A DNA stretch of 64,000 nt from Halapricum desulfuricans (lineage in GTDB: Archaea > Halobacteriota > Halobacteria > Halobacteriales > Haloarculaceae), in contig NZ_CP064788.1 of NCBI RefSeq assembly GCF_017094525.1, positions 975,030-1,039,029 on the forward strand, written 5' to 3'. Made by a program: the position numbers and the translations under genes. The notes under the pieces are model-generated. The model had not been told where the DNA came from. It saw only the letters and a list, made by a program, of their open reading frames with translations, and did no database searches. Positions 22,721-51,584 of this stretch are shown here, piece by piece; position 1 is the stretch's first letter; each line of letters begins with the position of its first letter.

Positions 22721-23215
22721 TCAAAACGGCAGTCCGTACTTGCTGAGATACTGTGCGAGCCCGGTGAAGTAGGCGATCAGCCAGAGGACGACGTAGCCGG
22801 CGACGCCGATCCGCAGTCGGGAGCGCCAGTGGTCCATACGGTCGCCGCCGATCTCCGAGAGCAACAGGTCCTCGTCGTAGTCGTGATAGAGGTCGTGTTC
22901 CCACTTGGCGCGGAAGATCCGGACGATCCCGGTGAGCGCGAAGGCGAGAAACGCGTACGCGTGTAGTCCGATCACGGCGTGGAGGACGCTGAACCCGTAA
23001 AATTGTTCGAGCAGGTTCGGAAGCATCCAGCCGACAAGCGGGATCGTCGTCAGCGCGAGACCGGTGAACACAACCGAGAGGTGTCGGACCAGCACGCTCC
23101 AGGTGACGGGATCGTTGTCGATCACGATCCAGGCGCCGTACAGAAAGCAGGGGAAACTGAGCGTCACCGAGAGCACGACCAGCGTCGCGACCGTCCCGTC
23201 GGCCAGCCCGAGCAT
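22721..23215 (-). CDS. DUF420 family membrane protein
   Basis: 164 aa, polytopic, conserved haloarchaeal membrane family. Confidence 0.55.
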   Translation of the reverse strand: MLGLADGTVATLVVLSVTLSFPCFLYGAWIVIDNDPVTWSVLVRHLSVVFTGLALTTIPLVGWMLPNLLEQFYGFSVLHAVIGLHAYAFLAFALTGIVRIFRAKWEHDLYHDYDEDLLLSEIGGDRMDHWRSRLRIGVAGYVVLWLIAYFTGLAQYLSKYGLPF

Positions 23216-24592: not shown

Positions 24593-24594
24593 GC

Positions 24595-26307: not shown

Positions 26308-26310
26308 GGG

Positions 26311-27891: not shown

Positions 27892-27982
27892 ATGTAGCAC
27901 ATATCTCGTAGAAGGCATGATACATAGTTCCTACGCCTGGTAACCGCTCCGTCGGGTGGCGTCACGAGACTCGACTCCGCGA

Positions 27983-29260
27983 TCACGAACCGAATAGCTC
28001 GCGTAGCTGCCTGAACAGAGAACCAGCCACGTCCGAGAGGCTGCGTTCGATCTCAGTCGCTTCCGTCGTCTCGCCCGACGAGCGAGTCGCCTCGGAACGA
28101 CGGAGGCTATCCGTTTCAATACCGACACGTTCCCGGTCGAGAGTCCCGGACGCCTCGCCGGCGATACCGGGAGCGTCCGTCCGTCTCTGCCAGGGGAACG
28201 TCCGCATCTCCGTCGACTGGGACTGGTCCCGGATTGTATCGAGGACGCTGCTGTCTTCCGCACGAGCGGCGAAGGAACTCCCCTCGGCGAAATCGCTTCG
28301 AGCGCGATGACGGCTCGTCGATCCGCCGACATCGGTCGAATAAGTACCACCGGAACAGCACAGAAGCGACACCGACTCGTCGAGGACAACCGCACGGAAC
28401 AGCGCAGTCAGATCACGTCGGAAATCGAGCATCGATTCGTATCGCTCGTCCCGTTTTTTCGCAAGGGCCGTTCCGAGGACCCCATCGACCGCTGCTGGAA
28501 GGTCGGGATCGACCTGTGTCGGCGGGTCAGGTGCATCAGTGAGATGGTGGTTCATCACCGCTTTGGCGGTGCCTGTAAACGGTGGATGCCCGGTCAGGAG
28601 CTCGTACACTACTGTCCCGAGCTGGTAGATGTCAGTTCGATCGTCCGGCGGCCCGAGCGTCTCGGGATCGAACTGTTCCGGTGCCGAGTACCGCGGTGAG
28701 AGTCCGTTCACCTCCTGTGAGTGGTGCAACAACAGTTTGGACAGTCCCCAGTCGCTCACCTTCGGAACGTCCCAGGTTCGGTCGTCGGTCGTCCGAAACA
28801 GCACGTTCTCGGGTTTCAGATCGAGATGTGCGACACCGTAGCGGTGGGCGTCCCGGACAGCGTTCGCGACCCAGGCACCGATCCACAGCGCTTCACCAAA
28901 GTCAATCTCACCGGTTCGGTCGGCAAGCGAGCCTCCGTCCATGTACTCCAGGGCGATCCAGGGAACCGGTGTCGAACCCCAGTCGACGATACCGACGATC
29001 CCGTCGTGGCTGTCGATCTGCTCCCACGTTTCTGCCTCCGAGACGACCCGCTGGGCGAGTTCCCGGTCCAGCGTCCCCTGCAGGCGCGGTTGCTTAACTG
29101 CCAGCACGGTGCCGTCCGGAGCACGCATCTTCGTTACGTCGGCTGTTCCTCCGATACCGATCTGCGCCTGCTCTTCCAGCGTCGAGAGATCAACATCGAT
29201 CGCTGGCGCCGCGGGCACGTGCTCTGGGATCGCCGTGTGATCAGTCGGCGATAGATTCAT
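27983..29260 (-). CDS. Hanks-type serine/threonine protein kinase
   Basis: VAIK-like AVK, HLDLKPENVL catalytic loop, SDWGLSK (DFG-equivalent) and APE motifs. Ser/Thr-rich C-terminal tail. Confidence 0.85.
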   Translation of the reverse strand: MNLSPTDHTAIPEHVPAAPAIDVDLSTLEEQAQIGIGGTADVTKMRAPDGTVLAVKQPRLQGTLDRELAQRVVSEAETWEQIDSHDGIVGIVDWGSTPVPWIALEYMDGGSLADRTGEIDFGEALWIGAWVANAVRDAHRYGVAHLDLKPENVLFRTTDDRTWDVPKVSDWGLSKLLLHHSQEVNGLSPRYSAPEQFDPETLGPPDDRTDIYQLGTVVYELLTGHPPFTGTAKAVMNHHLTDAPDPPTQVDPDLPAAVDGVLGTALAKKRDERYESMLDFRRDLTALFRAVVLDESVSLLCCSGGTYSTDVGGSTSRHRARSDFAEGSSFAARAEDSSVLDTIRDQSQSTEMRTFPWQRRTDAPGIAGEASGTLDRERVGIETDSLRRSEATRSSGETTEATEIERSLSDVAGSLFRQLRELFGS

Positions 29261-29469
29261 TGGACCCGACTAGCCGTATCCCGGTTCGGATGGGGTTCCC
29301 GAATCCGAAGCGGATATCTGGTCGCCCCCCTCTTGACGAGCGGGCGTCGGAGGGGGACGCTGTCGAATCCATCGGACGCGGTGTTCGGACGCACAGTTGT
29401 ATGCCAGTCTGGCACGATAAATAGTGTTTCGCTCGTTTCATAAAGTACTGGCCACCGGATAGGAGCCAG

Positions 29470-30240
29470 TCACACATCAGTGAGGTCCTCGCCGCACTCG
29501 GGACAGACCTGCGCTTTCGCGGGGATGGACTCGCCACAGAACAGACAGTACTTGCGAGTTCGTTTGTCTGCCGAACGTTCGGCCTCGCACTTCGGACAGA
29601 CCGGACCGGTATAGGTGATCCCATGAGTCTGACAGCTGTTTTGCGTGTCCGTTTCGCTGACTGTCTCCGGCGCGTCACCGGACGTGGCGCTCTGTGAGTT
29701 ACCACCGACGTTCGACCTGTTGACGACACTATCGTCGACGGTCACGTCGCCACCCCGCGAATCTTCCCCCGCCTGTCCGGGGCCGATGTCCGATCGGTTG
29801 ACGACGCTGTCGTTGACGGTCGTGCTGTTGTCGACCTTATCGCCGGCGACGTAATCGCCGCCGCTGACTTCGATCCGGGCGTCGCGCTCGACGGTCAGGC
29901 GGAGTTGGGTCTGGTAGCCGAGTTCGATCACCGCGTCTCGACGCACGCGCTCGCTGAATCCCTCTTCGATGTCGTGGGAGTCCCCTTCGGTCCGGACGAC
30001 GACGCCGTTAGAGTTTCCCCGGTTACGGACTTCGATCGACTCCGGCTGTGGGACGAACACGACAGGCGGATCGTCGCCTTTCTTCTTGGAGACGGTCACG
30101 TCCGCGATCCCGAGCGGTGCGACGCCGGTTTCGGTCTCGACGACGACTTCTTGATCCCGGGCGGGATCGCGGTAGACCTCCGTGCGTGACTCGATCGGGA
30201 CGGCCCCATTGTCGGTCCTCTCGGGCGAGAGATAGCCCTT
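29470..30240 (-). CDS. double zinc-ribbon protein with internal tandem repeats
   Basis: C-terminal CPKCEAE...CLFCGESIPAKAQVCPECGEDL. Tandem DSVVNRS(D/N)(I/V)G repeats, also visible at the nucleotide level. Start at MKGYLSP. Confidence 0.55.
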   Translation of the reverse strand, partial: KGYLSPERTDNGAVPIESRTEVYRDPARDQEVVVETETGVAPLGIADVTVSKKKGDDPPVVFVPQPESIEVRNRGNSNGVVVRTEGDSHDIEEGFSERVRRDAVIELGYQTQLRLTVERDARIEVSGGDYVAGDKVDNSTTVNDSVVNRSDIGPGQAGEDSRGGDVTVDDSVVNRSNVGGNSQSATSGDAPETVSETDTQNSCQTHGITYTGPVCPKCEAERSADKRTRKYCLFCGESIPAKAQVCPECGEDLTDV

Positions 30241-30346
30241 CATGCCTCTCTGCAAGCGTATTATATCTGGGAACCCATGAAAATGTGGGAATATGTCTGA
30301 TGCATATACATAGACCCAGACAAGCGTTTGGCCGCGACTTCGGGCG

Positions 30347-31117
30347 TCACTCCCGCATGTACGCCTGCTCGACCCGACTTGCGATCCGCTCGACACGCCT
30401 GATCCGATCCTCGGCCAACTCCCCATCCGTACCCAGCGCCTCGAAGGCCTCGATCAATCCCTCGACATCTTCCCGGACGTCCTCGTAGGCGCTATCGTCG
30501 ACGGGATGTTCGGCCATGAACTCCCGAACTTCCTCGGCGCGTTGGAGACACGCTGTCGCGGAGTCGTGGGCAGCTGCTTCCAGATGCTCCGCAAGCGACT
30601 GCCCGAGATAATCGACCGCCTCTTCACCGCCCTCGTCTTCCTCGTCGCTACCTTCATCTCGTTCCATCCGGGTGATATCCGACAGTCGCCGCCGGGCACG
30701 CCTGCGCTCGTCTTCGTAGGTCGCGTTGCCGGCGATCTCCGCCAGCGCCTTCCCCACTTCGCCCCGGAGCGTCTCACCCAGACCGGCATAGATCTCCCGG
30801 AGCGCGTCGATAGCGTCTAGCCGGTCGTCCGAAAACTTCGAATCATCAGCGAGTTCGGTTAGCGTCTCGACGACGACCTCTTCAATCGGGTCTGACTCGC
30901 TTTCGAAACAGGCCAGCAACTCCTCGCGGGCCAACTCGCGCTCGTCGCGGTGAGTCGACTCCAGTGTGATTTCCCGGAACGCCTCAGCGATAGTCCGCTT
31001 GTCCTCCACGGGCGCGTCCGGATACAGCTCGGCCAGCGACTCGATGGCCTCCTCGCGATCCCGCGAATAGGGCGAATCCAGCGCAGTCTCGCGATGCGTG
31101 TCGATGCTGTGCTGCAT
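30347..31117 (-). CDS. acidic alpha-helical repeat (HEAT-like) protein
   Basis: Repeated ...A.ESL.EL.......A..L.E... units. Start at MQHSIDTH (ATG 31115-31117). Confidence 0.45.
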   Translation of the reverse strand: MQHSIDTHRETALDSPYSRDREEAIESLAELYPDAPVEDKRTIAEAFREITLESTHRDERELAREELLACFESESDPIEEVVVETLTELADDSKFSDDRLDAIDALREIYAGLGETLRGEVGKALAEIAGNATYEDERRRARRRLSDITRMERDEGSDEEDEGGEEAVDYLGQSLAEHLEAAAHDSATACLQRAEEVREFMAEHPVDDSAYEDVREDVEGLIEAFEALGTDGELAEDRIRRVERIASRVEQAYMRE

Positions 31118-31118
31118 C

Positions 31119-32882
31119 TCAGTCACCTCCGAGGTCGTGGCCGCAATTGAGGCAAAACTCGTCGTCCGGCTCGACTTCCGCCTCACACTCGGGACAGACG
31201 ACGACCCGATCGGTACCGGAGTCATTACTACCGTCCGAGTCACTACCGCCGCCCTGGACGATCGTGGTGTCGCCGTCGTCGCTGCGCCCCGGATCGGAGA
31301 CGATCACGTTGTCGGAGGTGTCTTCGGCCGCGGCTGTGCCGGTCTCGCTCACGTTGTCCATCGCGGACTCGCTGGTCTCCTGTACCCGGTCCATCGAATC
31401 CGCAGCGATGTCTTTGATCTCCTCGCGGAACTCCTTTTGATCCTCGGCACGCTTGCGCTCGGCCTCGGCGTTGTGGGCCTCCTGGCGGGCCTTCGCGAGT
31501 TCGTCGGAGTCTTTCGCGCCAAGCGCTTCCAGTTGCTCGGGGGTGAGGTCCTCGGCAGCCTCGATCTCGGCGATCTCGGAGACGGCCTCGTCGACACTGT
31601 CCATACTCGCAAGCGTCGAAAGATCGACTTCGTCGCGTGCCCGCAGACGCTCTTTCTCGACTTCGGCCTCGTGTTCCTCGCGGCGCATTTCCAACTCATC
31701 TTCGCGTTCCTCGACGTCGAGACCGTCCATATCCTTCTTTTTCTTGAGGTGCATCAGGTCCTCGATCTCATCGACGTCCTGCTCGTGTTCGAGTTCGCGC
31801 CGTTCGACCTCGCCCTCTTTTTTCGTGGTTTTGATCTCTTCGGTGTGCTCAACGTCCTCGCGTTCGGCCGTGTGCTCGTGGCGGCGCTCCATGTCCGACT
31901 TCTCGTGTCGGTGTTCGATCTCCTGGGTCTCGATCTCGTGGTCGGCGGCCTGCTCGCTGGTCTCCCGGCGGACGCGCTGCTCGTTTTCGTGAACGCTGTC
32001 CGCAGTCTCGCGCTCGCGATCCCGGCGGTCCAGTCGGGCTTCGTCGTCCTTGATATCCTCCTCTTTCTCGCGGATCTCGACGTCCTTGTTCGCCTCGCGG
32101 ATGTGGTCCTGATCGTCCACGAAACTGACAGACAGCAGATCGACCAATCGAAGACCGTACCGCTGGAGGGCCGAGCGACAGGCACGCTCGATATTCTGAG
32201 CGAGTCGCTGTTTGAGTTCGCGATTACCATAGACGTCCTCGCGGTCGTACTCGCGCATCGTCGCTTCCAGTTCGTCCTCGATCGGACCGCCAAGCACCTG
32301 TTGGAAAGTCCGGCTGGTGACGGTCCCGCGGTCGGAAAGCAGACTCGTAAACAGTGTCATCGGATCGTCGACATCGATGGCGAGTTCGAAAGCGACGTCC
32401 AGCGGATACTCGCTGGCGGTCCGAGCACTCGCTTCGAGCGTGACCGTTGTCTCACGGCGCTCGATCAAGATTGCCGCGATGTCGCCGGTCTTCTGCAAGG
32501 ACGTGATCTGCTCACCCAGCGAGTCTAGCGTATGTTTGCCCGGTCCCAGCCGCTCGACGACTTGCCCATCGTGCACGAAAAGCGCCTCGTTGCCGGCCTC
32601 GATCGAGACCTGCTTTCGCCGTGTTAGTTTCCCCCAGAGACTATCGGATCCGAGCTCGCCGGCGTCGGCACGGCGAGCGAACTCGTGCGGTTTCAACCGG
32701 AGTGCGCCGTCCTGAGACGCTGTTGTCGGGCCGAGTTCGGCACGGCAGTTCGGGCAAAAGTTCGCCGCTGCTGGCACGGCTGTCCCGCAGTCGGGGCAAG
32801 TCCGCTCGACGGACGCACCACACTCACTGCAGAACGTCGCCTCGTCAGGCAGCGAGGCCCCGCAGTCGGGGCAGGTCGTCAT
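31119..32882 (-). CDS. SPFH/band-7 (flotillin-like) protein with N- and C-terminal zinc ribbons and a long charged coiled coil
   Basis: N-terminal CPDCG...CSECG...CPDCG...CPNC. SPFH core SIEAGNEALFVHDGQVVERLGPGKH ... YGLRLVDLLSVSF. E/R/K-rich flotillin-like coiled coil. C-terminal CPECEAE...CLNCGH. Confidence 0.65.
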   Translation of the reverse strand: MTTCPDCGASLPDEATFCSECGASVERTCPDCGTAVPAAANFCPNCRAELGPTTASQDGALRLKPHEFARRADAGELGSDSLWGKLTRRKQVSIEAGNEALFVHDGQVVERLGPGKHTLDSLGEQITSLQKTGDIAAILIERRETTVTLEASARTASEYPLDVAFELAIDVDDPMTLFTSLLSDRGTVTSRTFQQVLGGPIEDELEATMREYDREDVYGNRELKQRLAQNIERACRSALQRYGLRLVDLLSVSFVDDQDHIREANKDVEIREKEEDIKDDEARLDRRDRERETADSVHENEQRVRRETSEQAADHEIETQEIEHRHEKSDMERRHEHTAEREDVEHTEEIKTTKKEGEVERRELEHEQDVDEIEDLMHLKKKKDMDGLDVEEREDELEMRREEHEAEVEKERLRARDEVDLSTLASMDSVDEAVSEIAEIEAAEDLTPEQLEALGAKDSDELAKARQEAHNAEAERKRAEDQKEFREEIKDIAADSMDRVQETSESAMDNVSETGTAAAEDTSDNVIVSDPGRSDDGDTTIVQGGGSDSDGSNDSGTDRVVVCPECEAEVEPDDEFCLNCGHDLGGD

Positions 32883-32952
32883 AGTTGCCCCCCATGCAGC
32901 GAGTCAAGACGGTTTGGGTCAGTCGATACGCGCGTAGTGGTCTGCTCGTGTG

Positions 32953-33717
32953 TCATCGTGGATTATCTCCCTGATCGAGGCGCTGCTGTCGGCGTTCGAG
33001 GGCGGTTTCGAGGTCGCGGAGCCGGCGGTGAACCGTCTCGAAGTGTTCTCCGGCGGGGTTAGGAAGAGACTGCTCTAGGGCGTCAAGTTCCTCGTGGAGC
33101 CGGTCGATAGCCGCCACGAGATCCGTATGAATAGAGACAACGGCCGAACGATCGCGAAGAGATACGGCATCAGTAGATATGCCGTCCTGTGGACTCGTTA
33201 TTCGCTGTTCGGCCTGCCGGACGGTTTCGGCCAGCGAGCCGACTCGGGCGGCAGCGTCCCGGTCACCACTCTCGACGAGTCGATCGTGAACGTCGTCAAG
33301 GACTGACCTGGCCGCCGCGAGCTCGGTAGCCAGGTGCGATCGAACCTCGGCGTCGACGCTGGCGATCGAATCGGGCGACGAGTACGGCTCCGAGACGACG
33401 TCCCTGAGCGGTTCCGGAACGTCAACCGCGTCGGGCTGAGGGGGTGTCGACAGATCAGCCGCTGCTGGCGCAGACGCGGCTTCGGAGCTGTGGCGGGCAA
33501 AATGATACGCGATCCCCCAGAGAAACGCCAAAGCGGTGGATATCAGCAACATGCCGGTCACGGACTCGGGCAGCGAGAGGCCGACAGTCGAGAGCACTGA
33601 ATCACCGATCGACCGACTGATCCCCGTCACAAGGGACGTATGAGCACTGATGTATGCGCCGAGGACGATACTTCCGAAAGAAGCGATCGCGTGTGAAGCG
33701 CCTGTCTTGGCCGGCAT
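32953..33717 (-). CDS. membrane protein, possible SPFH partner
   Basis: Three N-terminal TM helices and a helical C-terminal domain. Confidence 0.4.
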   Translation of the reverse strand: MPAKTGASHAIASFGSIVLGAYISAHTSLVTGISRSIGDSVLSTVGLSLPESVTGMLLISTALAFLWGIAYHFARHSSEAASAPAAADLSTPPQPDAVDVPEPLRDVVSEPYSSPDSIASVDAEVRSHLATELAAARSVLDDVHDRLVESGDRDAAARVGSLAETVRQAEQRITSPQDGISTDAVSLRDRSAVVSIHTDLVAAIDRLHEELDALEQSLPNPAGEHFETVHRRLRDLETALERRQQRLDQGDNPR

Positions 33718-33720
33718 ACG

Positions 33721-34929
33721 TCACCTCTCGTATCCCGTCAGTGTCGCCTCGGTCTCCTCGATCGCCCGTTCGAGATGGGATTGAGTGATCGGCTGGACAT
33801 CGTCACTCTCGCGGGCGTCTTCGAGGGCGTATCTGGCGGCATTGGTCGCAACGATCTCCAGATCGCGCGCCGAGTAGCCCGCCGTCTGTCCCTTCGTCGT
33901 TTCCCAGTCGATCTCTTCGTGGAGGACCGGTCGATTCCGGAAGTGAACTCGCAATATCGCTGCGCGTGCCGGTGCGTCAGGAGGGGGGACTTCGATCCGC
34001 TCCTGAAAGCGGCTAACTGCGGCGTCGTCGACTTCCTCGGGGAGGTTCGTCGCGCCGACAACGATCACATCCTCGCCGCGGGTTTCGGTGAGTTCAGTCA
34101 GAAACTGGTTGACCATCTGGCGTTCGCTCTGAGTCTTCTGCGAGCCGCCGCTTCGGGACGGCATCAGGGCGTCGATCTCGTCGACGAAGATCAGACATGG
34201 CTGGTTCGATCGAGCGACCTCGAACAGCTCCGCGACGTTGTCAGCCGCTTCCCCGACCAGTGAGCTGGTGATGTCCGTGGCCCCGATCTCGATGAAATTG
34301 TAGCCGAGCTCTCCGGCCAGGGCGTTCGTAATGTACGTCTTCCCGGTTCCCGGCGGCCCGTACAGGAGGATCGCGTTGACGACGCCGAGATCGTACTCCT
34401 CGTAGAGGTCCGGCCGCTCCAGCGGATCGATCACGGTGTCTCTGAGTGTCTCCTTGAGCTCGCCCATCCCGCCGACGTCCTCGAAAGCCATCTCGGGCGG
34501 CTCTTCGAGAAATCCGCTCGCGTCCGTCTCTGTATCCGGTGTGGCTGACGACACCCCACTCGGCCGGGAGCCGTTGTTTCGACCGTCTGACGACTTCCCG
34601 CTCGCCGACGGAGTACTGTTCGGTGGCGTATCTGACCTCAATGGCCCATCGGGAGCATCTGCACCCGTTCCCGGCTGCTGACCGTCGAGCGAGCCAGCCC
34701 CTTCGAGTCGCTCGGCAGCCGTTCGAAGGTTTTCGGCGAGTTCGTGCCGCTTCGTCGCGAGCCGATCGCTCGACTCGGCGTTGGCGATGTCTTCGAGCGT
34801 CTCCGCACACTTGCGGTAGAGCTTCGCGGCTTTCTCGGCGTCACCGCGTTCCCGGTAGGCGTCGGCCTTCACCCGGTACTGCTCGTAGTTGTCCTTGAGG
34901 ATCTGCTTCTGGGCCTGATCTTCGATCAT
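33721..34929 (-). CDS. MIT-domain AAA+ ATPase (Vps4/CdvC-like)
   Basis: N-terminal MIT-like three-helix region (MIEDQAQKQILKDNYEQYRVKADAYRERGDAEKAAKLYRKCAETLEDIA), a Ser/Pro-rich linker and an AAA domain. Walker A GPPGTGKT, Walker B IFVDEID, SRH ...AVSRFQERIEVPPPD. An alternative start at 35001 would overlap the upstream gene. Confidence 0.75.
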   Translation of the reverse strand: MIEDQAQKQILKDNYEQYRVKADAYRERGDAEKAAKLYRKCAETLEDIANAESSDRLATKRHELAENLRTAAERLEGAGSLDGQQPGTGADAPDGPLRSDTPPNSTPSASGKSSDGRNNGSRPSGVSSATPDTETDASGFLEEPPEMAFEDVGGMGELKETLRDTVIDPLERPDLYEEYDLGVVNAILLYGPPGTGKTYITNALAGELGYNFIEIGATDITSSLVGEAADNVAELFEVARSNQPCLIFVDEIDALMPSRSGGSQKTQSERQMVNQFLTELTETRGEDVIVVGATNLPEEVDDAAVSRFQERIEVPPPDAPARAAILRVHFRNRPVLHEEIDWETTKGQTAGYSARDLEIVATNAARYALEDARESDDVQPITQSHLERAIEETEATLTGYER

Positions 34930-34966
34930 CGCGGGTCCTCCGATCGTTGCGCCGCCCGAATCATGG

Positions 34967-35689
34967 TCAGATCGTGCCGATGTCTTCGTCGAGGTCCTCA
35001 TCGAGGTCGGCGTCGAGACTCACCTCATCGAGGCCCTCTTCAGCTTCAACTTCCTGTTCGACGTCGATCTCTTCCTCGGAGATCTCTCCCGCCGCCATCT
35101 CCTCCATCATCTCCATCTCTTCGCTGTCTTCGGTCCCCATCTCGACGTTCATCACATCGATGTCCAGCCCTTCCTGAACCTCCTGCATGATCTCCATGTC
35201 GAGGTCGAACTCGACCATCTGATTCATCATGTCCTCCTGAACGGACTCGACGTCGACATCACGTTCCCGGATGATCTGTTCGATTTCGGTCGTGTCCCCA
35301 TCGTGCATGTCCTGGAGTTCGCGCGCCCCTTCTACGCTGACGACCGTCCCGAGGACAACGCTGTTTTTCTGGTACTGCTTCTTCTTTAGTTTGTACTTCT
35401 TTTTCGCAATCTGTGCCTTCTTCGCGTAGCTTTCCCGCTCGATTTCGTTCGTCTGTGCTCCCTTCTGGAGCAACTCCTTGTACTCGTTTGCATACTGATT
35501 CATCTCCTGTTCGATCCGCTTGCGCTGCTTGCGGAGTTTGATCTTGTCCCGACGGAGGTCCTCGTCGTTGTAGACTGCCTCATCAAGCAGGGAATTGGCC
35601 GATTCACCGAAGTAATCCTGTACCCAGTTGCGAACTTGCATGGTTGGTGTGTATGTTTGGATTGGCAAATTACTTTGCACGCGATCCAT
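34967..35689 (-). CDS. ESCRT-III/Snf7-like coiled-coil protein with an acidic C-terminal tail
   Basis: Basic N-terminal helices (LRRDKIKLRKQRKRIEQEMNQYANEYKELLQKGAQTNEIERESYAKKAQIAKKKYKLKKKQYQ). Central and C-terminal Met/Glu/Asp-rich helices (MMNQMVEFDLDMEIMQEVQEGLD). This is the Snf7/CHMP charge asymmetry, and the gene sits next to the MIT-AAA ATPase. Confidence 0.55.
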   Translation of the reverse strand: MDRVQSNLPIQTYTPTMQVRNWVQDYFGESANSLLDEAVYNDEDLRRDKIKLRKQRKRIEQEMNQYANEYKELLQKGAQTNEIERESYAKKAQIAKKKYKLKKKQYQKNSVVLGTVVSVEGARELQDMHDGDTTEIEQIIRERDVDVESVQEDMMNQMVEFDLDMEIMQEVQEGLDIDVMNVEMGTEDSEEMEMMEEMAAGEISEEEIDVEQEVEAEEGLDEVSLDADLDEDLDEDIGTI

Positions 35690-35967
35690 CAGATCTCTGG
35701 TTCAAACACCAGCAGCGTCCCGAGCACGCCCAGCACCGAGCCAGCGGCGGCAGCCAGCACCAGCAACTTCATCTCCGAAACGGTGACCGTCAGCATCTCC
35801 TCGCCGAACGTCGCCTCGGCGTAGATGATCGCTGCGCCAACGAGTACGCCGCCGAACGCCCCAGCCGCGACCCGCTGTTCCATCAACTTGTACACGCCCA
35901 ACACGAGGGTCGCAGCGACGAGGAGGTTCAGTACGAACGCGCCTCCGATCCAGAGTGTGATCGACAT
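35689..35967 (-). CDS. small membrane protein (three TM helices), first gene of the accessory cluster
   Basis: 92 aa, hydrophobic; its start codon overlaps the next gene. Confidence 0.45.
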   Translation of the reverse strand: MSITLWIGGAFVLNLLVAATLVLGVYKLMEQRVAAGAFGGVLVGAAIIYAEATFGEEMLTVTVSEMKLLVLAAAAGSVLGVLGTLLVFEPEI

Positions 35968-36330
35968 GGCTTTGTCAGCTCACGTGACCAACATCCGTGT
36001 CTACCCACTTAAATTTACCTACTATCTGGTTCTTCTACTGAATATCCATTTTGGAGAAGAATGTGTATCGAATATTCACACTCGTAGACGATCAATAGGC
36101 CGACAAAGTGGGGTATAGCGACCCGTTTGTGCGCTGTACACGACCGAGCGTCGTTGAAAGCGACCACTGTGCCCACAGACTGCTTGCCTCCGATTTGGAG
36201 AAAAGCTTTAGTTATTGGCATCGGAGATATAGAACAGAGATGAGACAGTCAGGTATGCGGACCCGCGCAGTCCGGTCGATCGGGGCAGTCGATCGACGTG
36301 AGAGGTGGCGGTCAGTGCAGGTGTTCGCCC
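35968..36330. promoter_or_regulatory. AT-rich divergent promoter region between the minus-strand cluster and the plus-strand gene pair
   Basis: About 45% GC with TATA-like motifs (tttaaatttacc, atattcacact). Confidence 0.5.
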
Positions 36331-36852
36331 ATGAGTGGTGAGTCAGATGAGGAGTACCTGTTCGTGGTCGACTACAAGTCGGACGCCGAGCGCAAACGCG
36401 TCGAGTATCTGTTCGAGAACGCGGACGGCGAGATCGAGTCGCTCGAAGGGCTGTCACGGATTGCGCACGATGTCGACCACGAGGCCATCTACGAGCAGCT
36501 CGTCTCGAAGGTCCCCGACGAGCAAGTCACGGCGTATCGTCTCGAACCGGTCGACATCGCGGCCGAACCCGAGCGCGTCACCGTCGAGCAGACGATCGAC
36601 GCGGCACCCGAAACCGTCGAGACGTTCGTCGAGTACATGCTCTCGAAGAAGAAAGCGGTCCTCCAGTCGTCAGCACGCAACGTGTACGAAGTCTACACGA
36701 AGAAAGGCCGTGCGGAGATCAGCTACGAACTCGACGGCGACGGCGGCGGGACGGTCGCCAGGATCCGGATCGACGGCTATCCGCCAGCACCGTCGTTTCT
36801 CGCCGAGTTCTTCGAGACCGAACTGACAGATTATGCGGAGAGCCAATTATGA
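36331..36852 (+). CDS. hypothetical acidic protein
   Basis: 174 aa from MSGESDEEY. Overlaps the downstream gene by 4 nt. Confidence 0.5.
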   Translation: MSGESDEEYLFVVDYKSDAERKRVEYLFENADGEIESLEGLSRIAHDVDHEAIYEQLVSKVPDEQVTAYRLEPVDIAAEPERVTVEQTIDAAPETVETFVEYMLSKKKAVLQSSARNVYEVYTKKGRAEISYELDGDGGGTVARIRIDGYPPAPSFLAEFFETELTDYAESQL

Positions 36853-39005
36853 CAACGTTCACCGACCGATTCGACGAGTTGACTCACGAAATGGAGGTCC
36901 TCCTCGATGAGGACCTCGCGTCGATCCAGAAGATGCCCGAACAGACCCGGCTGGAACGGTACAACAGTCTCAAATCCGACGAGGAGGAGTTCGTCTGGGA
37001 GTTCGCCAAGGAATTCGATCAGCTGACCGGCAGCGAGCGCGAAGACGTGCGGGCGAAGTTCAGACTCGCGCGACTGCTGATCGCGGCGAGCTTCTACGAG
37101 GAAGGGTCGCTCCCGCGCGCGATGCGCGACGATTTCGTCGAGACTGAACTGCAAGCCGTTGTCGACTTCGAGCGCTACAAGCGCTTCGACGTGCTCACCG
37201 AAGAAGAGATCGAGGCCAAGATCCGCCGGATGGACGGCGAAGTGTACGAACTCGTCACCGAGTACACCTCGACTCAGATCGCCAACATGGACGAGCTGAT
37301 GGACGAACCGGACGTCCAAAGCGACGTCATGCGAAAGCTTCTGGACCGCTATCAGGAGCGTTGCGAGAAGATCCGACAAGGGTTTTTCGTCTACGTCGAG
37401 ACCCACGGCCTCGAACACATGGTCGAGTCTATCGAGGCGGCCGTCCAAGCGGTCTCGGAGTCGGCCGACGAGCGTGAGGCGATCCAAGCAGAGCTCCGTG
37501 AAGAGATTCAGTCATTGTCTGAGTCACTGGAAGCCGACTTTCGACAGCAACAGCGTACATTCGAGGCACAGCTCCAGCAGGTCGAACACGAGATTACCAG
37601 CCAGACCGTCGATAGCGAGCAACTTCAGTCGGAACTCCAGCGCCTCGAACAGCAGGGCGATTCACTTACCGAACAGCAGGAGGTGCTCCTGGAGGAGTTC
37701 GGCGAGCGGATCGAACGCACGTCGACACTGGAGACGCGTCTCTCGACAAAGATCGAACAGCTCGAGGAGGTCCAACGCCAGACCAGAGAGGAGGTCCGCA
37801 AGGCCGCCCGCGAGGAGACGACCGCCGTCGTCGAGGAGGAACTGGCTGCGTTGCGCGAGCAGCGCGAGCAGCTCCAAGCGGAGATCGACACGCTCGAGCG
37901 CGAACGCGAGAGCATCGAGGTCGCCCGCGAACGTCTCGGTGAGAAGCAACAGCGCCTGTCCACCGAAGTCGATGGCCTGGCCGAACAGCGTGCTACGATC
38001 GAAGACACGACGGAGAAGCTCGACGAAACAGAGGCCGAACTCGCCGAACAAACCGACCGCCTTGCTGACGAGCGCGACGAACTCGCAGACACACGCGACC
38101 AGCTCAAGGACCGGCAGCGAGACCTCAAATCCGAGGTCGAGGACGCCCAGCAGTCGCTCAGCGCGGGCGACAACACGCTACCGGACCGGGCAATCAGCAC
38201 TTCAATGGCCCGACTGCTGGAGATGGACTACGTCGGTCGCTTCGACACGTCGATGCACGACGCCGAATCGGTCGTCACGACCGACGGGACCGTCGAGATC
38301 CCGGACGGGTACTGGGCCGATCGAAGCGAGCATTTGAACGATCAAGTCCGACTCGACCAGTTACTCGACGCCGACGGCACGCCCGAGAAATATCCCCTCG
38401 ACCGTCGCGCCAGATATTTCGTCACCGGTTCGGGACTACTGGGATTGCGGTCACGCCGGAAGATGGTGATCGAGGCGGCGATCAAGTCTAACCTTGAGGC
38501 CCACGCGACGAACGGTTTCGACGCTGCGCCCCGCGATCTCGACGATCTGCTCAATGTGGTCAACGACGCCGTCTACGAGGCTCAACAGAACGATTATCAC
38601 TATCTGTTGGGTGTTGCCTCACCGACGGGCTGGACCGACCGGGTGATCAGACAGGTCGAGGGCGGGAACGTAGCACGATCACGGTACTCCCGCCATCTCA
38701 GTCTGGTGCTGGTCGATCTCCAGCACGGCGACATCTACTACGACGATAGTGACGAGATCGCCAGCGAAAACAGCGATCTCTACGAAATTCCCGTAACGGC
38801 CGAGCGTGTCGATAAGGCGGTCGACGTGATCCGGTCGAACTACATCGAGGAGGTGGGGATCGATAGCGTCCTGCTGGAAGAGGTCGTCGAGGAGCAGGGA
38901 TTCGACGTCCGTGAAACCAAGGAGGCCTTCGACCGACTTGCGGAGAGCGGAGTGGGCGAACAACTGCATATCGACGAGTACGGGCTTGCGCTCGACGTCT
39001 CGTGA
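36849..39005 (+). CDS. large coiled-coil protein (718 aa) with a globular C-terminal domain
   Basis: About 250 aa of E/Q/R-rich heptads (SMC/Rad50-like coiled-coil character). C-terminal domain has YHYLLGVASPTGWTD...LVLVDLQHGDIYYDD. Confidence 0.55.
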   Translation: MTTFTDRFDELTHEMEVLLDEDLASIQKMPEQTRLERYNSLKSDEEEFVWEFAKEFDQLTGSEREDVRAKFRLARLLIAASFYEEGSLPRAMRDDFVETELQAVVDFERYKRFDVLTEEEIEAKIRRMDGEVYELVTEYTSTQIANMDELMDEPDVQSDVMRKLLDRYQERCEKIRQGFFVYVETHGLEHMVESIEAAVQAVSESADEREAIQAELREEIQSLSESLEADFRQQQRTFEAQLQQVEHEITSQTVDSEQLQSELQRLEQQGDSLTEQQEVLLEEFGERIERTSTLETRLSTKIEQLEEVQRQTREEVRKAAREETTAVVEEELAALREQREQLQAEIDTLERERESIEVARERLGEKQQRLSTEVDGLAEQRATIEDTTEKLDETEAELAEQTDRLADERDELADTRDQLKDRQRDLKSEVEDAQQSLSAGDNTLPDRAISTSMARLLEMDYVGRFDTSMHDAESVVTTDGTVEIPDGYWADRSEHLNDQVRLDQLLDADGTPEKYPLDRRARYFVTGSGLLGLRSRRKMVIEAAIKSNLEAHATNGFDAAPRDLDDLLNVVNDAVYEAQQNDYHYLLGVASPTGWTDRVIRQVEGGNVARSRYSRHLSLVLVDLQHGDIYYDDSDEIASENSDLYEIPVTAERVDKAVDVIRSNYIEEVGIDSVLLEEVVEEQGFDVRETKEAFDRLAESGVGEQLHIDEYGLALDVS

Positions 39006-39040
39006 TAAATTCTGACAGTGAAACGAAAGCCAAGATTCGC

Positions 39041-39117
39041 AGTGATTACTGTCAGTCTGTTCTGGATCGACCGCACGAAGGGGTGCAGTCGGACCGGTAA
39101 ATCGTTGCAGTAACGAC
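39041..39117. repeat. intergenic hairpin repeat element, copy b
   Basis: GTCTGTTCTGGATCGACCGCACGAAGGGGTGCAGTCGGACCGGTAAATCGTTGC flanked by an imperfect outer stem. Confidence 0.6.
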
Positions 39118-39206
39118 TATCAAGCGTGCTTGCCGACAGTGGGGCAGAGCCAGCAGTGATCGACGAGATGGGGTTCTGGAACTGCGGTCAGTGGATCGAG
39201 ACACTC

Positions 39207-39287
39207 ATACGGTCGGTTGTAAGTCTGTTCCAGATCGATCGCATCCGTTATGCGATCGTACCGGTAAATCGTTACAACCGACCGTAT
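39207..39287. repeat. intergenic hairpin repeat element, copy c (perfect 16-bp outer stem)
   Basis: atacggtcggttgtaa ... ttacaaccgaccgtat encloses GTCTGTTCCAGATCGATCGCATCCGTTATGCGATCGTACCGGTAAATCG. Confidence 0.65.
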
Positions 39288-39400
39288 CAGCTATTGCGGG
39301 CCGAATACGATCCCGATGCCAAGCGCACCACCCTGCGACTGCAGAGACCTCACGCCGGTGAACGATACGTGTAAGGCCCCGGAAACCGAATCTATGGCTA

Positions 39401-40240
39401 ATGGACGCGTCCGGTTCCACGCCGCCCGAGGCCGACTCGTCGACAAATAACGGGGACGAAGCGGGCGACGGGACGAGCACCGAAGACGATGACCGCTCGA
39501 CGGAGCAGCTCCGCGAACGGGTCGAACAGAAGTACGACTTCGAGGACTTCGGCCCGCGAGATATGGCCGAGATGACCGCCGAGGAGTGGGAGGCGGCGTT
39601 CGACGCCGACAGCTGGATCACTGGCGACGAACTGCTCAACCGCGTCGAGGCCGACCTCAAACAGCGGGTGCTCGATCGGGACGTCTTCGCCCGGATCGAA
39701 CGCGGCGACGAGTACCTGCTGGCATACTCCGAGGCCGGCTTCGCGCTGGTCTACCCTGACGGCAGCGTCGAGGGCGAAGGAACGGTCCTGCGGGACGTCA
39801 AGCCGGTGATCGCGCTGTGCTCGATGGACGACTACGAGGTCCCGGACGTACCCGACGGCGAGGTGCTCCCCGAGCCACAGGATGTGCCCGAGGGCGGCAG
39901 CGAACTCGGGAACATGATGGTCCAGGTGATCGCCGTCGTGCAGCTGCTGGCCGGCGTGATCCTGTTCGGTGCCGGGATCGTCCTCGGGCTGGAGCCGATC
40001 CCGCTCGTCGCCGGGCTCGGATTTTTCGTCGTCGGTGTGGGGCTGCTGTTCGTCGTGGCCAACGCCCGACTGTCCGATCGGTTCCGCTCCGAGGAGTTTC
40101 GGGACCGCCTGCGAGCGGTCAACGTCGGCGGCGAACGCCCGGACTTTCTCCCCGTCGACGAGGACGGCAACCTGACGACCGACCGACTCGACGGCGACTC
40201 CGAGAGTGTGCTTCCGCCCCGACCGGATCGCGAGGAGTGA
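39401..40240 (+). CDS. membrane protein with an acidic N-terminal domain
   Basis: Two TM helices (MMVQVIAVVQLLAGVILFGAG..., GLGFFVVGVGLLFVVA). Confidence 0.5.
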   Translation: MDASGSTPPEADSSTNNGDEAGDGTSTEDDDRSTEQLRERVEQKYDFEDFGPRDMAEMTAEEWEAAFDADSWITGDELLNRVEADLKQRVLDRDVFARIERGDEYLLAYSEAGFALVYPDGSVEGEGTVLRDVKPVIALCSMDDYEVPDVPDGEVLPEPQDVPEGGSELGNMMVQVIAVVQLLAGVILFGAGIVLGLEPIPLVAGLGFFVVGVGLLFVVANARLSDRFRSEEFRDRLRAVNVGGERPDFLPVDEDGNLTTDRLDGDSESVLPPRPDREE

Positions 40241-42421: not shown

Positions 42422-43225
42422 ATGAGTCTCGAACGCAAAGACGACCACGATCACAACGCCTGGCTGGAGAACCGCGACGACCTCTCGCACATCGAGACCG
42501 TCTACCTGACTGCGCTGATGTGGCTCGACAAGCGGCTTCGCATCGTCGACTACCTGGAACTGCTCGAGGACCTCTACTACAAGGTCAACATGCAGATGCC
42601 AAAGAGCCACACCGAACAATACGGCCTGGACAACAAGTTCTGGTACTGGTACCCGCTGTACGCGCTGGGATCGTTCTCGACGCTGGCATATATCGTCGCG
42701 GCGATCTCGGGTGCGCTGCTGGGCTTTTACTACACACCCGGTGCCGGCGCGAGCGAGTCCGCGTCACTGGCCTACACCCAGATCGAGTTCATCATGATGG
42801 AGCTGAACTTCGGGTACTTCCTGCGGAGCCTCCATCGCTGGTCCGCGCAGGTGATGGTCGCGGCCGTCTTCCTGCACATGCTCCGGGTGTACTTCACCGG
42901 GGCCTACAAGGAACCGCGCGAACTGAACTGGCTGCTCGGGATCGTGTTGATCAGCCTGACGATGGTCTTCGGGTACACCGGCTACCTGCTGCCGTGGGAT
43001 CAGCTGGCCTTCTGGGCCGGCCAGATCGGCGTCGAGATGAGCCTCTCGATCCCGCTGATCGGCGAGTGGGTCGCCCAGTTGCTGTTCGGCGGCTTCACGC
43101 CGAACCCGGCGACGCTCCAGCGGATGTACATCCTGCACGTGTTCTTCCTGCCCTTCATCGTGACGACGCTGATCGCCATCCACATCGGCATCGTCTGGAT
43201 GCAGGGCATCGCGGAACCGCACTGA
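42422..43225 (+). CDS. petB: cytochrome b (b6-like N-terminal subunit) of the bc complex
   Basis: Four-helix core with conserved His pairs (LRSLHRWSAQVMV..HMLRVYFTGAY; LPWDQ). Confidence 0.85.
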   Translation: MSLERKDDHDHNAWLENRDDLSHIETVYLTALMWLDKRLRIVDYLELLEDLYYKVNMQMPKSHTEQYGLDNKFWYWYPLYALGSFSTLAYIVAAISGALLGFYYTPGAGASESASLAYTQIEFIMMELNFGYFLRSLHRWSAQVMVAAVFLHMLRVYFTGAYKEPRELNWLLGIVLISLTMVFGYTGYLLPWDQLAFWAGQIGVEMSLSIPLIGEWVAQLLFGGFTPNPATLQRMYILHVFFLPFIVTTLIAIHIGIVWMQGIAEPH

Positions 43226-43231
43226 TCACAC

Positions 43232-51533: not shown

Positions 51534-51584
51534 TCAGTCCAACGGCCCCACACGATTTTATTCGTTGCTCGCCTCACTCGACCT

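Follow-up and report, generated by a model that had tools for sequence, protein, structure and literature searches.

The question raised by this locus is whether two adjacent genes of the haloarchaeon Halapricum desulfuricans, located in a stretch of 64,000 nucleotides (the window), encode an ESCRT-III-like protein and a partner AAA ATPase, and how the ATPase is related to Vps4. A reading made from the sequence alone had proposed a Cdv/ESCRT-like pair, considered unusual in Halobacteria. In reviews until about 2021, Halobacteriales were described as having no ESCRT-III, only Vps4 homologues. This view was reversed by Makarova et al. [quoted passage not shown]

Gene models and published status of the locus

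The longest open reading frames of the pair, 34967..35689 (240 aa) and 33721..35001 (426 aa), were present on the minus strand, as were the sequence strings quoted in the earlier reading. The starts of these longest forms are probably wrong. A start at 'MQVR...' (M17 of the 240-aa frame) was common to 34/34 aligned homologues, which indicates a 224-aa product encoded by 34967..35641, and the ATPase on record was a 402-aa form starting 'MIEDQ', the 426-aa form being absent from the record. With the corrected starts, the genes do not overlap and are separated by 37 nt. The pair and its neighbors were as follows:

35689..35967, minus strand: open reading frame for a small hydrophobic protein, 92 aa (WP_229111706.1), first gene of the operon, predicted from its sequence to be a membrane protein
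34967..35641, minus strand: ESCRT-III-like (Snf7-type) protein, 224 aa (WP_229111705.1), an exact match to the database record, where it is annotated 'hypothetical protein'
33721..34929, minus strand: ATPase with MIT-like domain, linker and single AAA cassette, 402 aa (WP_229111704.1), sharing a 90% cluster with WP_229124354.1
32953..33717, minus strand: 254-aa protein, hydrophobic at its N-terminus and helical in its C-terminal part, 'Putative membrane protein'
31119..32882, minus strand: 587-aa protein with a double Zn-ribbon, SPFH (Band 7) domain, acidic coiled coil and Zn-ribbon (Pfam Zn-ribbon families, weak Band_7_1)
30347..31117, minus strand: acidic helical protein, 256 aa, UniRef name 'HEAT repeat domain-containing', with homologues in the related loci L001 and L002
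29470..30243, minus strand: FHA-like and Zn-ribbon protein, 257 aa, in the 90% cluster of WP_229124358.1, with a tblastn match to the arCOG13166 protein of pHmuk01 (E=8e-10)
27983..29260, minus strand: membrane-associated Ser/Thr protein kinase, 425 aa (Pkinase E=1.1e-29; name from the source annotation)
36331..36852, plus strand: divergently transcribed 173-aa protein, conserved in L001 and L002
36849..39005, plus strand: coiled-coil protein, 718 aa, arCOG09748 cluster, conserved in L001 and L002

Three of these proteins were at least 90% identical to catalogued proteins of a sister strain of H. desulfuricans. The ATPase, the 718-aa protein and the FHA-like protein shared 90% clusters with WP_229124354.1, WP_229124351.1 and WP_229124358.1, respectively, which are listed as the Vps4, arCOG09748 and arCOG13166 components of H. 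desulfuricans ESCRT (PMC10936438). The clade was named Halo_FHA and consists of an arCOG01307 Vps4, an ESCRT-III protein and an arCOG13166 FHA/CdvA-like protein, often accompanied by arCOG09748, arCOG08177 and a Ser/Thr kinase. In the published tree, where Vps4 membership was set by the MIT domain or by gene neighborhood, the H. desulfuricans Vps4 has order 5 and falls in the block 4-13 with the Halo_FHA representative Natronolimnobius baerhuensis (PMC10936438). The window contained an arCOG01307 ATPase of the Halo_FHA clade, an arCOG13166 FHA/CdvA-like neighbor and an ESCRT-III gene upstream of the ATPase. The locus is a real pair of an ESCRT-III-like protein and an MIT-type ATPase, of the published Halo_FHA type and already known since 2024 as one of the haloarchaeal ESCRT systems of the survey. 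The proposal of an adjacent ESCRT-like pair in a haloarchaeon was supported, with both reading frames side by side inside an ESCRT-like operon; the view that a Vps4-paired Snf7-like protein is unusual in Halobacteria is outdated, since arCOG01307 and arCOG07402 already cover such pairs and three haloarchaeal clades have been published (PMC10936438). In the available parts of the survey tables, there was no Halapricum entry for the 224-aa protein or the Zn-ribbon-SPFH protein.

In four more haloarchaeal loci (L001, L002, L033 and L034), the 224-aa gene likewise immediately preceded the ATPase gene, so that the pairing cannot be attributed to chance. An equal gene order was seen in Haloplanus litoreus, Haloglomus irregulare and two metagenomic contigs, and at least 12 clusters of homologues of the pair were on contigs of matching length. 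Among 185,579 species genomes, the patterns used recovered no more than two full-length orthologous loci, and the version on pHmuk01 is plasmid-borne.

The small protein and the ESCRT-III superfamily

The 224-aa protein could be divided into the following parts:

35609..35638, minus strand: amphipathic helix alpha0, residues 2-11 (QVRNWVQDYF), with an invariant Gly12 right after it; AF2 helix 2-11 at low pLDDT
35306..35566, minus strand: basic helical hairpin, helices 26-62 and 66-112 with the turn 'QKGA', predicted to be the ESCRT-III core alpha1-alpha2/3
35084..35125, minus strand: conserved short acidic Met-rich helix, residues 173-186, SEEMEMMEEMAAGE; AF2 helix 174-183, pLDDT 77-83
34970..35083, minus strand: disordered acidic C-terminal tail, residues 187-224, pLDDT ~30, net charge -19, zero K/R

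The basic N-terminal part and acidic, Met-rich C-terminal part typical of ESCRT-III, which the sequence-only reading had pointed out, were evident from the charges: a net +6 for residues 1-112 (24 K/R) versus -44 for residues 113-224 (2 K/R, 46 D/E and 11 Met). The AF2 topology consisted of alpha0, at low pLDDT, a hairpin of 37 and 47 residues, three short helices and the tail helix. E175, M179 and G185 of the short acidic helix were almost invariant in the family alignment and this helix may be a candidate MIT-interacting motif; a MIM1 or MIM2 consensus was not evident in the tail, including the conserved helix SEEMEMMEEMAAG.

Sequence searches of Pfam, NCBIfam and the PDB with the 224-aa protein found nothing. 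Pfam Snf7 (PF03357) was absent from the window protein at E<=1 and from all family members at E<=0.01 (0/59), and the published arCOG07402 protein of pHmuk01 likewise has no Pfam Snf7 match. The HMM of the 224-aa family matched this arCOG07402 ESCRT-III gene with E=1.2e-16. When the family profile was compared by hhalign with six Pfam-verified Snf7 proteins, a small comparator set, the match was of moderate strength (Prob 70.5-72.2%, P ~3.5e-5) and, at 71.6%, extended over 130 collinear columns, from the N-terminal 'FG' motif through alpha5, with reversed controls at <=1.1%. In a low-mact hhalign alignment, the F-G of alpha0 was paired with the N-terminal 'LFG' motif of Snf7/CHMP ('DYFGE' versus 'SLFGW' in Snf7). 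When 19 proteins from the locus and its surroundings were compared, several being rich in coiled coils, the 224-aa protein alone matched the Snf7 profile and the other 18 scored <=1.8%.

The hhalign scores also bear on the possibility that the locus is a PspA-like module for envelope stress or repair, in which the small protein would carpet or seal damaged membrane and the ATPase would serve as its recycling factor. Recruitment would be by the SPFH protein, in the way that YdjI recruits PspA in B. subtilis, and this reading departs from the preferred one in family assignment as well as cellular role. Compared with ~72% for Snf7, PspA/Vipp1 was at background (0.5-1.4% with family profiles and 7.5% with a single sequence), Pfam PspA_IM30 (PF04012) matched no member of the family, and MIT-AAA partners go with ESCRT-III, not PspA. 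Moreover, the hairpin arms of PspA/Vipp1 are longer than the 37 and 47 residues predicted here. A PspA-like module is therefore unlikely, and the preferred assignment of the 224-aa protein within the ESCRT-III superfamily is to the Snf7 type rather than the PspA type, as the sequence-only reading had suggested.

Domain structure and affinities of the ATPase

The ATPase has the following parts:

34690..34929, minus strand: three-helix MIT-like domain, residues 1-80; AF2 helices 2-27, 31-51 and 55-78, pLDDT ~95
34525..34689, minus strand: disordered Gly/Ser/Asp/Pro-rich linker, residues 81-135; pLDDT <50 over 84-132, length and sequence variable among orthologues
33724..34524, minus strand: AAA cassette, residues 136-402, with a four-helix lid, without the beta-domain or C-terminal helix; Walker A is GPPGTGKT (191) and Walker B FVDEID (248)
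34249..34269, minus strand: pore loop 1, TSSLVGE, residues 221-227
33976..34056, minus strand: SRH, GATN...SRFQERIEVPPPD, residues 292-318

Several observations, in addition to the well-predicted AF2 bundle, supported the assignment of the N-terminus as an MIT-like three-helix domain, a part of the earlier proposal that stood: 1) the N-domain family profile matched the Sulfolobus Vps4 MIT chains 2v6y (E=0.002) and 2w2u (0.023) and CdvC 4lcb (0.044) in the PDB, with TPR proteins alongside, and the Sulfolobus MIT domains were the only natural AAA N-domains among these matches, 2) Pfam MIT was the commonest match of the orthologous N-domains (10/18, best E=0.0011, all under the gathering score), and 3) hhalign gave 85.8% with the N-domain of the canonical-looking Vps4 of pHmuk01. 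TPR models scored about the same as MIT, all MIT matches were sub-threshold, and the comparison by hhalign with two eukaryotic MIT domains was no better than the reversed control.

The ATPase matched Pfam AAA at E=4.8e-38 and contained the string AVSRFQERIEVPPPD. GPPGTGKT, FVDEID, ATN and R307 were invariant in its single cassette, and Walker A and B, sensor 1 and the arginine finger were all present. The cassette had been assigned to the meiotic clade, an assignment that was not upheld. Its identity to the cassettes of Vps4 (33%), katanin, spastin, PAN, FtsH and Cdc48 was about equal, 30-36%, and its closest relative was D2 of a haloarchaeal tandem-AAA protein (50% identity). A neighbor-joining tree with low deep bootstraps grouped the window cassette with the haloarchaeal tandem-AAA cassettes and the pHmuk01 Vps4 with the meiotic group. 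On the side of Vps4, the best single-cassette PDB sequence match of the ATPase was the yeast protein, 158 bits versus 151.5 for VAT D2. Pore loop 1, TSSLVGE with an aliphatic Leu, did not vary among 119 aligned orthologues; the position of the Leu is W or Y in Vps4, katanin, spastin, ATAD1 and the pHmuk01 Vps4. In the C-terminal 103 residues AAA_lid_3 alone was found and Vps4_C was absent, while Pfam-verified Vps4, spastin and katanin all gave Vps4_C. The alignment of the ATPase stopped short of the '...W..(D/E)FG' helix kept by the pHmuk01 Vps4, and AF2 predicted a plain four-helix lid.

The SRH had also been said to resemble Vps4. The short spacing, in which the two-residue 'PG' insertion typical of the classic clade is missing, was indeed seen, but the window sequence reads S-R-F, with one arginine versus the RR of Vps4. 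Moreover, the 120 closest homologues were divided into 87 with the short SRH and 33 with the classic R[ST]GRF; L033, whose operon is the same, is among the latter. Because the spacing is polymorphic in the orthologous family, the short SRH is most simply regarded as not ancestral to the family and as a secondary deletion rather than a shared Vps4 character.

We tentatively suggest that the Halo_FHA ATPase may not be an orthologue of Vps4/CdvC, although this has less than even odds. It would instead combine an MIT-like domain with a classic-clade cassette of recent common origin with D2 of the haloarchaeal membrane tandem-AAA family, with an aliphatic pore loop and lacking the C-terminal oligomerization helix, the short SRH having arisen by a secondary two-residue deletion; the ESCRT-III/AAA partnership would have been rebuilt, or its motor replaced, in Halobacteria, and the Zn-ribbon-SPFH protein, for which the available parts of the survey have no haloarchaeal record, would be a core component. 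If so, the mode of action of the ATPase may differ from Vps4 threading. The atypical features of the cassette are not discussed in the available sections of the survey (PMC10936438).

Another alternative is that the pair is not an ESCRT system, that the ATPase is a Cdc48/PAN-like unfoldase with a TPR-like N-domain that recruits clients or adaptors, and that the 224-aa protein is an unrelated coiled-coil adaptor or substrate, the likeness being architectural only. The source annotations were 'CDC48 family' or 'transitional endoplasmic reticulum ATPase', and the NCBIfam models for FtsH, CDC48, CdvC and PAN all scored ~165-172 bits, far under their cut-offs (169 for CdvC versus a cut-off of 650 bits). 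The top Foldseek neighbors were p97, Cdc48 and Rix7, with Vps4 absent from the top 50, and the tandem-AAA protein that supplies the nearest cassette has no ESCRT neighbors. The comparable TPR and MIT scores and the missing Snf7 Pfam match also fit an unfoldase. Set against these points, the hhalign match to Snf7 was specific and collinear with clean controls, the small protein was linked by HMM to arCOG07402 and the N-domain to that of a canonical-looking Vps4, no natural AAA N-domains other than the Sulfolobus Vps4 MIT were matched in the PDB, and membrane proteins, SPFH and the arCOG09748/08177 proteins common to other archaeal ESCRT loci accompany the pair in a conserved operon. An unfoldase unrelated to ESCRT is unlikely. 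Nevertheless, the lack of a curated model for the small protein, the moderate ~72% from hhalign, the sub-threshold MIT matches and an ATPase without the Vps4 features (aromatic pore loop, Vps4_C and RR) count against the ESCRT reading.

Operon context and related systems

The 254-aa gene began 3 nt past the ATPase stop codon; its position was occupied by a gene for a protein of 173-240 aa in L033 and L034, and tblastn found no match to the 254-aa protein in L001 or L002. The 587-aa SPFH gene had an equal operon position in L001, L033 and L034. Most of 50 orthologues of its product had PF01145 Band_7 and one was named SPFH domain protein; the list for SPFH arCOG15283, in the available part of the survey, included no Halobacteria (PMC10936438). 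Pfam FHA itself was not detected in the 257-aa FHA-like protein, and kinases homologous to the 425-aa kinase adjoined the loci in L002 and L032. The 173-aa protein is probably of the arCOG08177 type, with an inactivated Cas2-like N-domain and a TBP-like domain: its motif 'AERKRVEYLF' matched the 'AERKRIEYVLFK' motif of Fig. S3 of the survey, and its gene adjoins arCOG09748 as in the published loci (PMC10936438).

The locus is likely to be the core of a haloarchaeal ESCRT-like membrane-remodeling operon of the published Halo_FHA type, for which we infer polymerization, an MIT-tail contact, substrate threading and a cellular role as follows. As a divergent ESCRT-III subunit of the Snf7 type, the 224-aa protein would bind membrane through its amphipathic helix and basic hairpin and polymerize. 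Its strongly acidic C-terminal half, which bears the conserved short helix, probably folds back and holds the monomer closed. The ATPase, presumably a hexameric AAA+ protein, would dock on the C-terminal tail of the 224-aa protein through the MIT-like domain on its flexible linker, and the AAA ring would then extract subunits from the polymer, resulting in turnover or remodeling. The two small membrane proteins and the Zn-ribbon-SPFH protein may provide membrane anchoring or scaffolding, arCOG09748 (winged helix) and arCOG08177 are possible cargo or ESCRT-II-like adaptors, and the FHA-like protein and Ser/Thr kinase may be responsible for phospho-regulation.

Haloarchaeal division is based on FtsZ, an established point which argues that the role of the system is not cytokinesis but would more likely be vesicle or bud formation, protein sorting or membrane repair. 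A Cdv-like machine, in which the pair constricts and cuts the division neck like Sulfolobus CdvB/CdvC, is suggested by the homology class (ESCRT-III and MIT-AAA), the arCOG name 'cell division ATPase' and the CdvA-like C-terminus reported for the FHA protein, but it is highly improbable, since the patchy distribution among haloarchaea seen with the patterns used and the plasmid location on pHmuk01 fit poorly with an essential division gene and protein sorting has been proposed for euryarchaeal systems (Makarova et al. 2024, PMC10936438).

No experiments on any haloarchaeal ESCRT system were found in the literature searched. A conserved operon of ESCRT-III-like, MIT-AAA, SPFH and FHA/kinase genes in archaea that divide with FtsZ and produce vesicles is a good experimental target for the role of ESCRT where division does not need it. 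The present analysis adds the atypical ATPase cassette, with its Leu pore loop, absent Vps4_C, polymorphic SRH and tandem-AAA kinship, and the SPFH-Zn-ribbon protein as a constant neighbor of the pair.

Among known systems, the bacterial pspA-ydjGHI operon (SPFH protein YdjI) and the Meth_adaptin ESCRT loci (SPFH-coiled coil-Zn ribbon) also combine an ESCRT-III-superfamily gene with a Zn-ribbon SPFH protein and small membrane proteins. The window differs in that its small protein is Snf7-like rather than PspA-like and an AAA ATPase is present; adaptin-like genes were not seen. Eukaryotic Snf7/CHMP and Vps4 share with the window proteins the collinear profile similarity, the basic core and acidic tail, and the MIT-like domain, flexible linker and one AAA cassette. 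However, the window proteins lack Pfam Snf7, an above-threshold MIT, Vps4_C and a recognizable MIM1 or MIM2, and the cassette is 33% identical to Vps4, no more than to PAN, FtsH or p97.

In the crenarchaeal CdvB/CdvC system, an ESCRT-III-type protein is likewise found beside an MIT-linker-AAA ATPase, and the window N-domain profile matches the Sulfolobus Vps4 MIT structures. In contrast, the window locus has no CdvA gene, its ESCRT-III protein has no winged-helix extension, the ATPase is far below the NCBIfam cut-off for CdvC and has an aliphatic pore loop and no Vps4_C, and the host divides with FtsZ. The Halomicrobium mukohataei pHmuk01 pair has the gene order of the window, with ESCRT-III upstream of the ATPase, an FHA protein and kinase alongside, and the matches of E=1.2e-16 for the ESCRT-III-like protein and 85.8% for the N-domain. 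However, its ATPase, only 30% identical to that of the window, falls with Vps4, katanin and spastin and retains the pore loop SKYFGE, the SRH RRRF and the C-terminal '...W..EFG' helix, all of them features that the window ATPase lacks. Halo_FHA itself was described in the same species (PMC10936438); three window proteins share 90% identity or more with its published entries, the ESCRT-III-like gene immediately precedes that of the ATPase, and the FHA-like protein, kinase, arCOG09748 and arCOG08177-like gene are all in the window.

The gene pair and its ESCRT-III-like member

Both open reading frames, and the peptides that the sequence-only reading had quoted from them, were found on the minus strand of the window. 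The longest-ORF starts probably lie too far upstream in both genes. In an alignment of the small protein's family, each of the 34 homologues begins with "M(Q/E)(V/L)R", corresponding to Met17 of the ORF, and the 402-residue ATPase is the sole form on record. With these starts, a gap of 37 nt separates the two genes, and there is no overlap.

Longest and corrected reading frames of the gene pair
34967..35689, minus strand: longest ORF of the small protein, 240 aa
34967..35641, minus strand: small protein, corrected start, 224 aa
33721..35001, minus strand: longest ORF of the ATPase, 426 aa
33721..34929, minus strand: ATPase, corrected start "MIEDQ...", 402 aa

A "hypothetical protein" of H. desulfuricans, WP_229111705.1, shows 100% identity with the 224-aa protein, and exact sequence matches assign the window to a single strain (QSG0847x-0848x). 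The claimed ESCRT-III charge architecture was confirmed, with a net charge of +6 in residues 1-112 and -44 in residues 113-224, the acidic half containing 11 methionines.

Searches of Pfam, NCBIfam and PDB sequences gave no match to the 224-aa protein, whether as a single sequence or as profiles of 34 and 59 sequences, and none of the 59 family members, which were drawn from an exhaustive profile search returning 94 representatives, matched the Pfam models Snf7 or PspA_IM30. Profile-profile comparison (hhalign) of the family with six eukaryotic ESCRT-III proteins (their Snf7-family status confirmed by Pfam) gave a probability of 70.5-71.6% (P about 3.5e-5). The closer-family profile aligned with Snf7 over 130 collinear columns (query 10-163, template 4-148), the alignment starting at the N-terminal "FG" motif, crossing the α1 "KG" turn and reaching α5. 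Three PspA/Vipp1 proteins scored at most 1.4% and reversed-sequence controls at most 1.1%. The ESCRT-III-like identity proposed for the small protein is upheld, with Snf7 favored over PspA. Of 19 proteins from the locus and its surroundings, several of them coiled-coil-rich and similar in composition, only the 224-aa protein matched the Snf7 profile; the remaining 18 included no other ESCRT-III-like gene as judged by the Snf7, PspA and family profiles. The broader family HMM also matched (E=1.2e-16) a gene on the Halomicrobium mukohataei plasmid pHmuk01 that is classed as arCOG07402, "ESCRT-III/Snf7 family", in a survey of archaeal ESCRT systems (Makarova et al. 2024, PMC10936438).

In the AF2 model (mean pLDDT 64.6), a short helix at the N-terminus precedes a hairpin whose arms have 37 and 47 residues (pLDDT 79-92). 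Three short helices and a conserved helix in the tail follow, and the acidic end is disordered. The tail helix, residues 174-183, is Met-rich, and its region, SEEMEMMEEMAAG, is a candidate MIM. Foldseek returned nothing under E=0.3 with this model, and the fold searches were compatible with ESCRT-III but not diagnostic. On grounds of homology, the 224-aa protein probably belongs to the ESCRT-III superfamily as a divergent, Snf7-type member, and we hold an ESCRT-III function with less confidence.

The operon, its relatives and its setting

The gene pair belongs to a longer minus-strand series, with two divergent genes beside it.

Genes of the ESCRT-like cluster
Minus strand: 92-aa hydrophobic protein, the first gene, followed by the ESCRT-III-like gene and then the ATPase gene
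Minus strand: 254-aa membrane/helical protein, starting 3 nt past the ATPase stop
31119..32882, minus strand: 587-aa double-Zn-ribbon-SPFH(Band 7)-coiled coil-Zn-ribbon protein, two genes past the ATPase
Minus strand: 256-aa helical protein, starting 1 nt past the stop of the 587-aa gene
Minus strand: FHA-like Zn-ribbon protein, 257 aa, after the 256-aa gene
Minus strand: Ser/Thr kinase (Pkinase, 1e-29), after the FHA-like gene
Within 23351..27918, minus strand: 535-aa and 308-aa proteins, no family found, beyond the kinase
24595..25380, minus strand: bactofilin-like protein (weak Pfam match; RefSeq name "bactofilin family")
23351..24592, minus strand: HEAT-repeat protein
Divergent: 173-aa protein with the "AERKR(I/V)EY" motif of arCOG08177
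Divergent: 718-aa arCOG09748 protein

The core gene order was kept in Haloplanus litoreus and in two metagenomic contigs (L033 and L034), one of which also carries a PP2C phosphatase and a PQQ-kinase, and partly in Haloglomus irregulare. Of the genes beyond the kinase (23351..27918), only the 308-aa protein was weakly matched in Haloplanus litoreus. The SPFH assignment of the 587-aa protein rests on PF01145 matches in most of 50 orthologues; its counterparts lie at 13297..15147 in Haloplanus litoreus, 3927..5750 in L033 and 7739..9520 in L034, and no fewer than 17 orthologue clusters of this protein come from contigs equal in size to those of ATPase orthologues. The Zn-ribbon-SPFH protein is a constant member of the operon. 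[quoted passage not shown]

On pHmuk01, a further gene (20258..20938, plus strand), at a distance of about 9 kb from that for Vps4, was matched by the ESCRT-III-like family profile (E=3e-12), and a 222-aa protein (11138..11806, minus strand) encoded directly upstream of the arCOG07402 gene weakly matched the MIT-like N-domain profile (E=8e-4).

The view that such a pair is unusual in Halobacteria is outdated, since Halo_FHA systems, a haloarchaeal ESCRT clade, were catalogued in 2024 (PMC10936438); a 2021 review had credited Halobacteriales with Vps4 homologues only, which explains the surprise. Three proteins of sister strain HSBGL fall in the same 90% clusters as the ATPase (WP_229124354.1), the 718-aa protein (WP_229124351.1) and the 257-aa Zn-ribbon protein (WP_229124358.1). 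All three are in Table S1 of the survey, the first as Vps4, arCOG01307, and in its tree list the Vps4 of Halapricum stands as entry 5, in a haloarchaeal block (4-13) with the Halo_FHA representative Natronolimnobius baerhuensis (PMC10936438). Halo_FHA loci are described there as Vps4, ESCRT-III and an FHA protein, to which arCOG09748, arCOG08177, kinases and phosphatases are sometimes added (PMC10936438). For the SPFH family arCOG15283, its tables give at least ten entries, and those covered come from methanogens and unclassified euryarchaea, with none from Halobacteria among them (PMC10936438). The locus has thus been published before, as a prediction from comparative genomics; the literature searched yielded no experimental work on any haloarchaeal ESCRT system.

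The whole cluster lies in a stretch (24000..40000) with a G+C content of 0.59-0.62, compared with 0.64-0.69 on each side, and a tRNA-Val gene is at its edge:

22524..22600, plus strand: tRNA-Val

The cluster may occupy an acquired island at this tRNA, but no integrase was found. A second low-G+C stretch (0.57-0.60, 50000..57500), with ORFs lacking a Pfam family and a DDE transposase (54891..56063), directly precedes SecY (57525..59000). The cluster is flanked by DUF7319 and DUF7321 haloarchaeal proteins and a split cytochrome b pair (39401..40240, plus; 22721..23215, minus; 42422..43999, plus), with no evident ESCRT link. Anti-phage defense was rejected, as PADLOC returned only generic AAA (IetA, TRIP13) and coiled-coil noise.

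The N-domain and AAA cassette of the ATPase

The predicted layout of the ATPase (AF2) is Vps4-like: three helices (2-27, 31-51 and 55-78), modelled at pLDDT about 95, come ahead of a disordered linker (84-132) and a single AAA cassette. A profile built from 18 orthologous N-domains matched Sulfolobus Vps4 MIT structures (2v6y, E=0.002; 2w2u, 0.023; CdvC 4lcb, 0.044), the only natural AAA N-domains among its matches, the remainder being TPR proteins. Pfam MIT was the most frequent model over these N-domains, matching 10 of 18 with every match under threshold and the best at E=0.0011, and hhalign gave 85.8% against the N-domain of the pHmuk01 Vps4. Comparison with two eukaryotic MIT domains, too thin a comparator, stayed at the level of the reversed control. 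These convergent, individually weak lines of evidence favor the MIT-like N-terminal segment originally suggested.

The assignment of the cassette to the meiotic clade did not fare as well. Its identity was alike, 30-36%, to the cassettes of Vps4, katanin, spastin, ATAD1, PAN, FtsH and p97/VAT (families of Vps4, spastin, katanin, ATAD1, PAN and p97 confirmed by Pfam, FtsH being an E. coli fragment outside the confirmed set). It was 50% identical to D2 of an uncharacterized haloarchaeal tandem-AAA protein (about 855 aa), both having the motif E(K/R)IEVPPPD. Such proteins in Natronomonas, Halococcus and Halocatena (about 9000..11700 in each locus) combine a hydrophobic N-terminal region with two AAA cassettes; no curated NCBIfam model reached its cut-off for them, and no ESCRT-III-like or MIT gene was within 10 kb in five tandem-AAA loci (L003-L007). 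Pore loop 1 reads TSSLVGE without variation in 119 orthologues, at a site occupied by K-(W/Y) in Vps4-type proteins; the exception, P0102 (535 aa), has an aromatic SKWMGQ versus SSLVG in other family members. Pfam Vps4_C was not detected in the ATPase, the chain stopping short of the C-terminal helix.

The short SRH (33976..34056), read as Vps4-like, is real in this ATPase, being two residues shorter than in VAT, but the argument drawn from it does not hold up: among the 120 closest homologues, 87 are short (W/S/x-R-RF or x-S-RF), and the classic R[ST]GRF occurs in 33, including P0106, a homologue encoded on L033 with the same operon. All outgroups carry the long SRH, so a deletion within the ATPase family is the parsimonious reading.

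In favor of a link to Vps4, the yeast protein was the best single-cassette PDB sequence match (phmmer, 158 bits versus 151.5 for VAT D2), but this ranking is inflated by two-cassette proteins and does not discriminate, because the pHmuk01 Vps4 control ranked alike. Classing the ATPase by model score or fold was abandoned: NCBIfam scores for FtsH, CDC48, CdvC and PAN were all 165-172 bits, and Foldseek placed p97-type chains first (p97, Cdc48, Rix7). Deep nodes of a neighbor-joining tree of the cassettes were weakly supported. These comparisons do not convincingly place the cassette in the meiotic clade.

Possible role and comparison with Vps4

The analysis shows how the genes are ordered and that this order is conserved, how the domains are arranged and which homologies link the proteins. 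Beyond this, we infer a mechanism in which the 224-aa protein would bind membrane through α0 and its basic hairpin and polymerize. Its acidic half would be autoinhibitory and would hold out the conserved Met-rich helix for binding by the MIT-like domain, and the ATPase hexamer would then pull subunits out. The SPFH protein and the small membrane proteins could position the assembly, and the kinase and FHA protein could control it through phosphorylation. Haloarchaea divide with FtsZ, and the ESCRT-like system is patchy among them and sometimes plasmid-borne (pHmuk01); vesicle budding, sorting or membrane repair is therefore more likely than cytokinesis.

The remaining interest lies in the atypical motor and its conserved SPFH partner. 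Doubts about strictly Vps4-like threading by this ATPase come mainly from its aliphatic pore loop and its lack of the C-terminal helix. In contrast, SKYFGE, RRRF and the "...W..EFG" helix at the C-terminus are all retained in the pHmuk01 Vps4, which falls into a group with Vps4, katanin and spastin.
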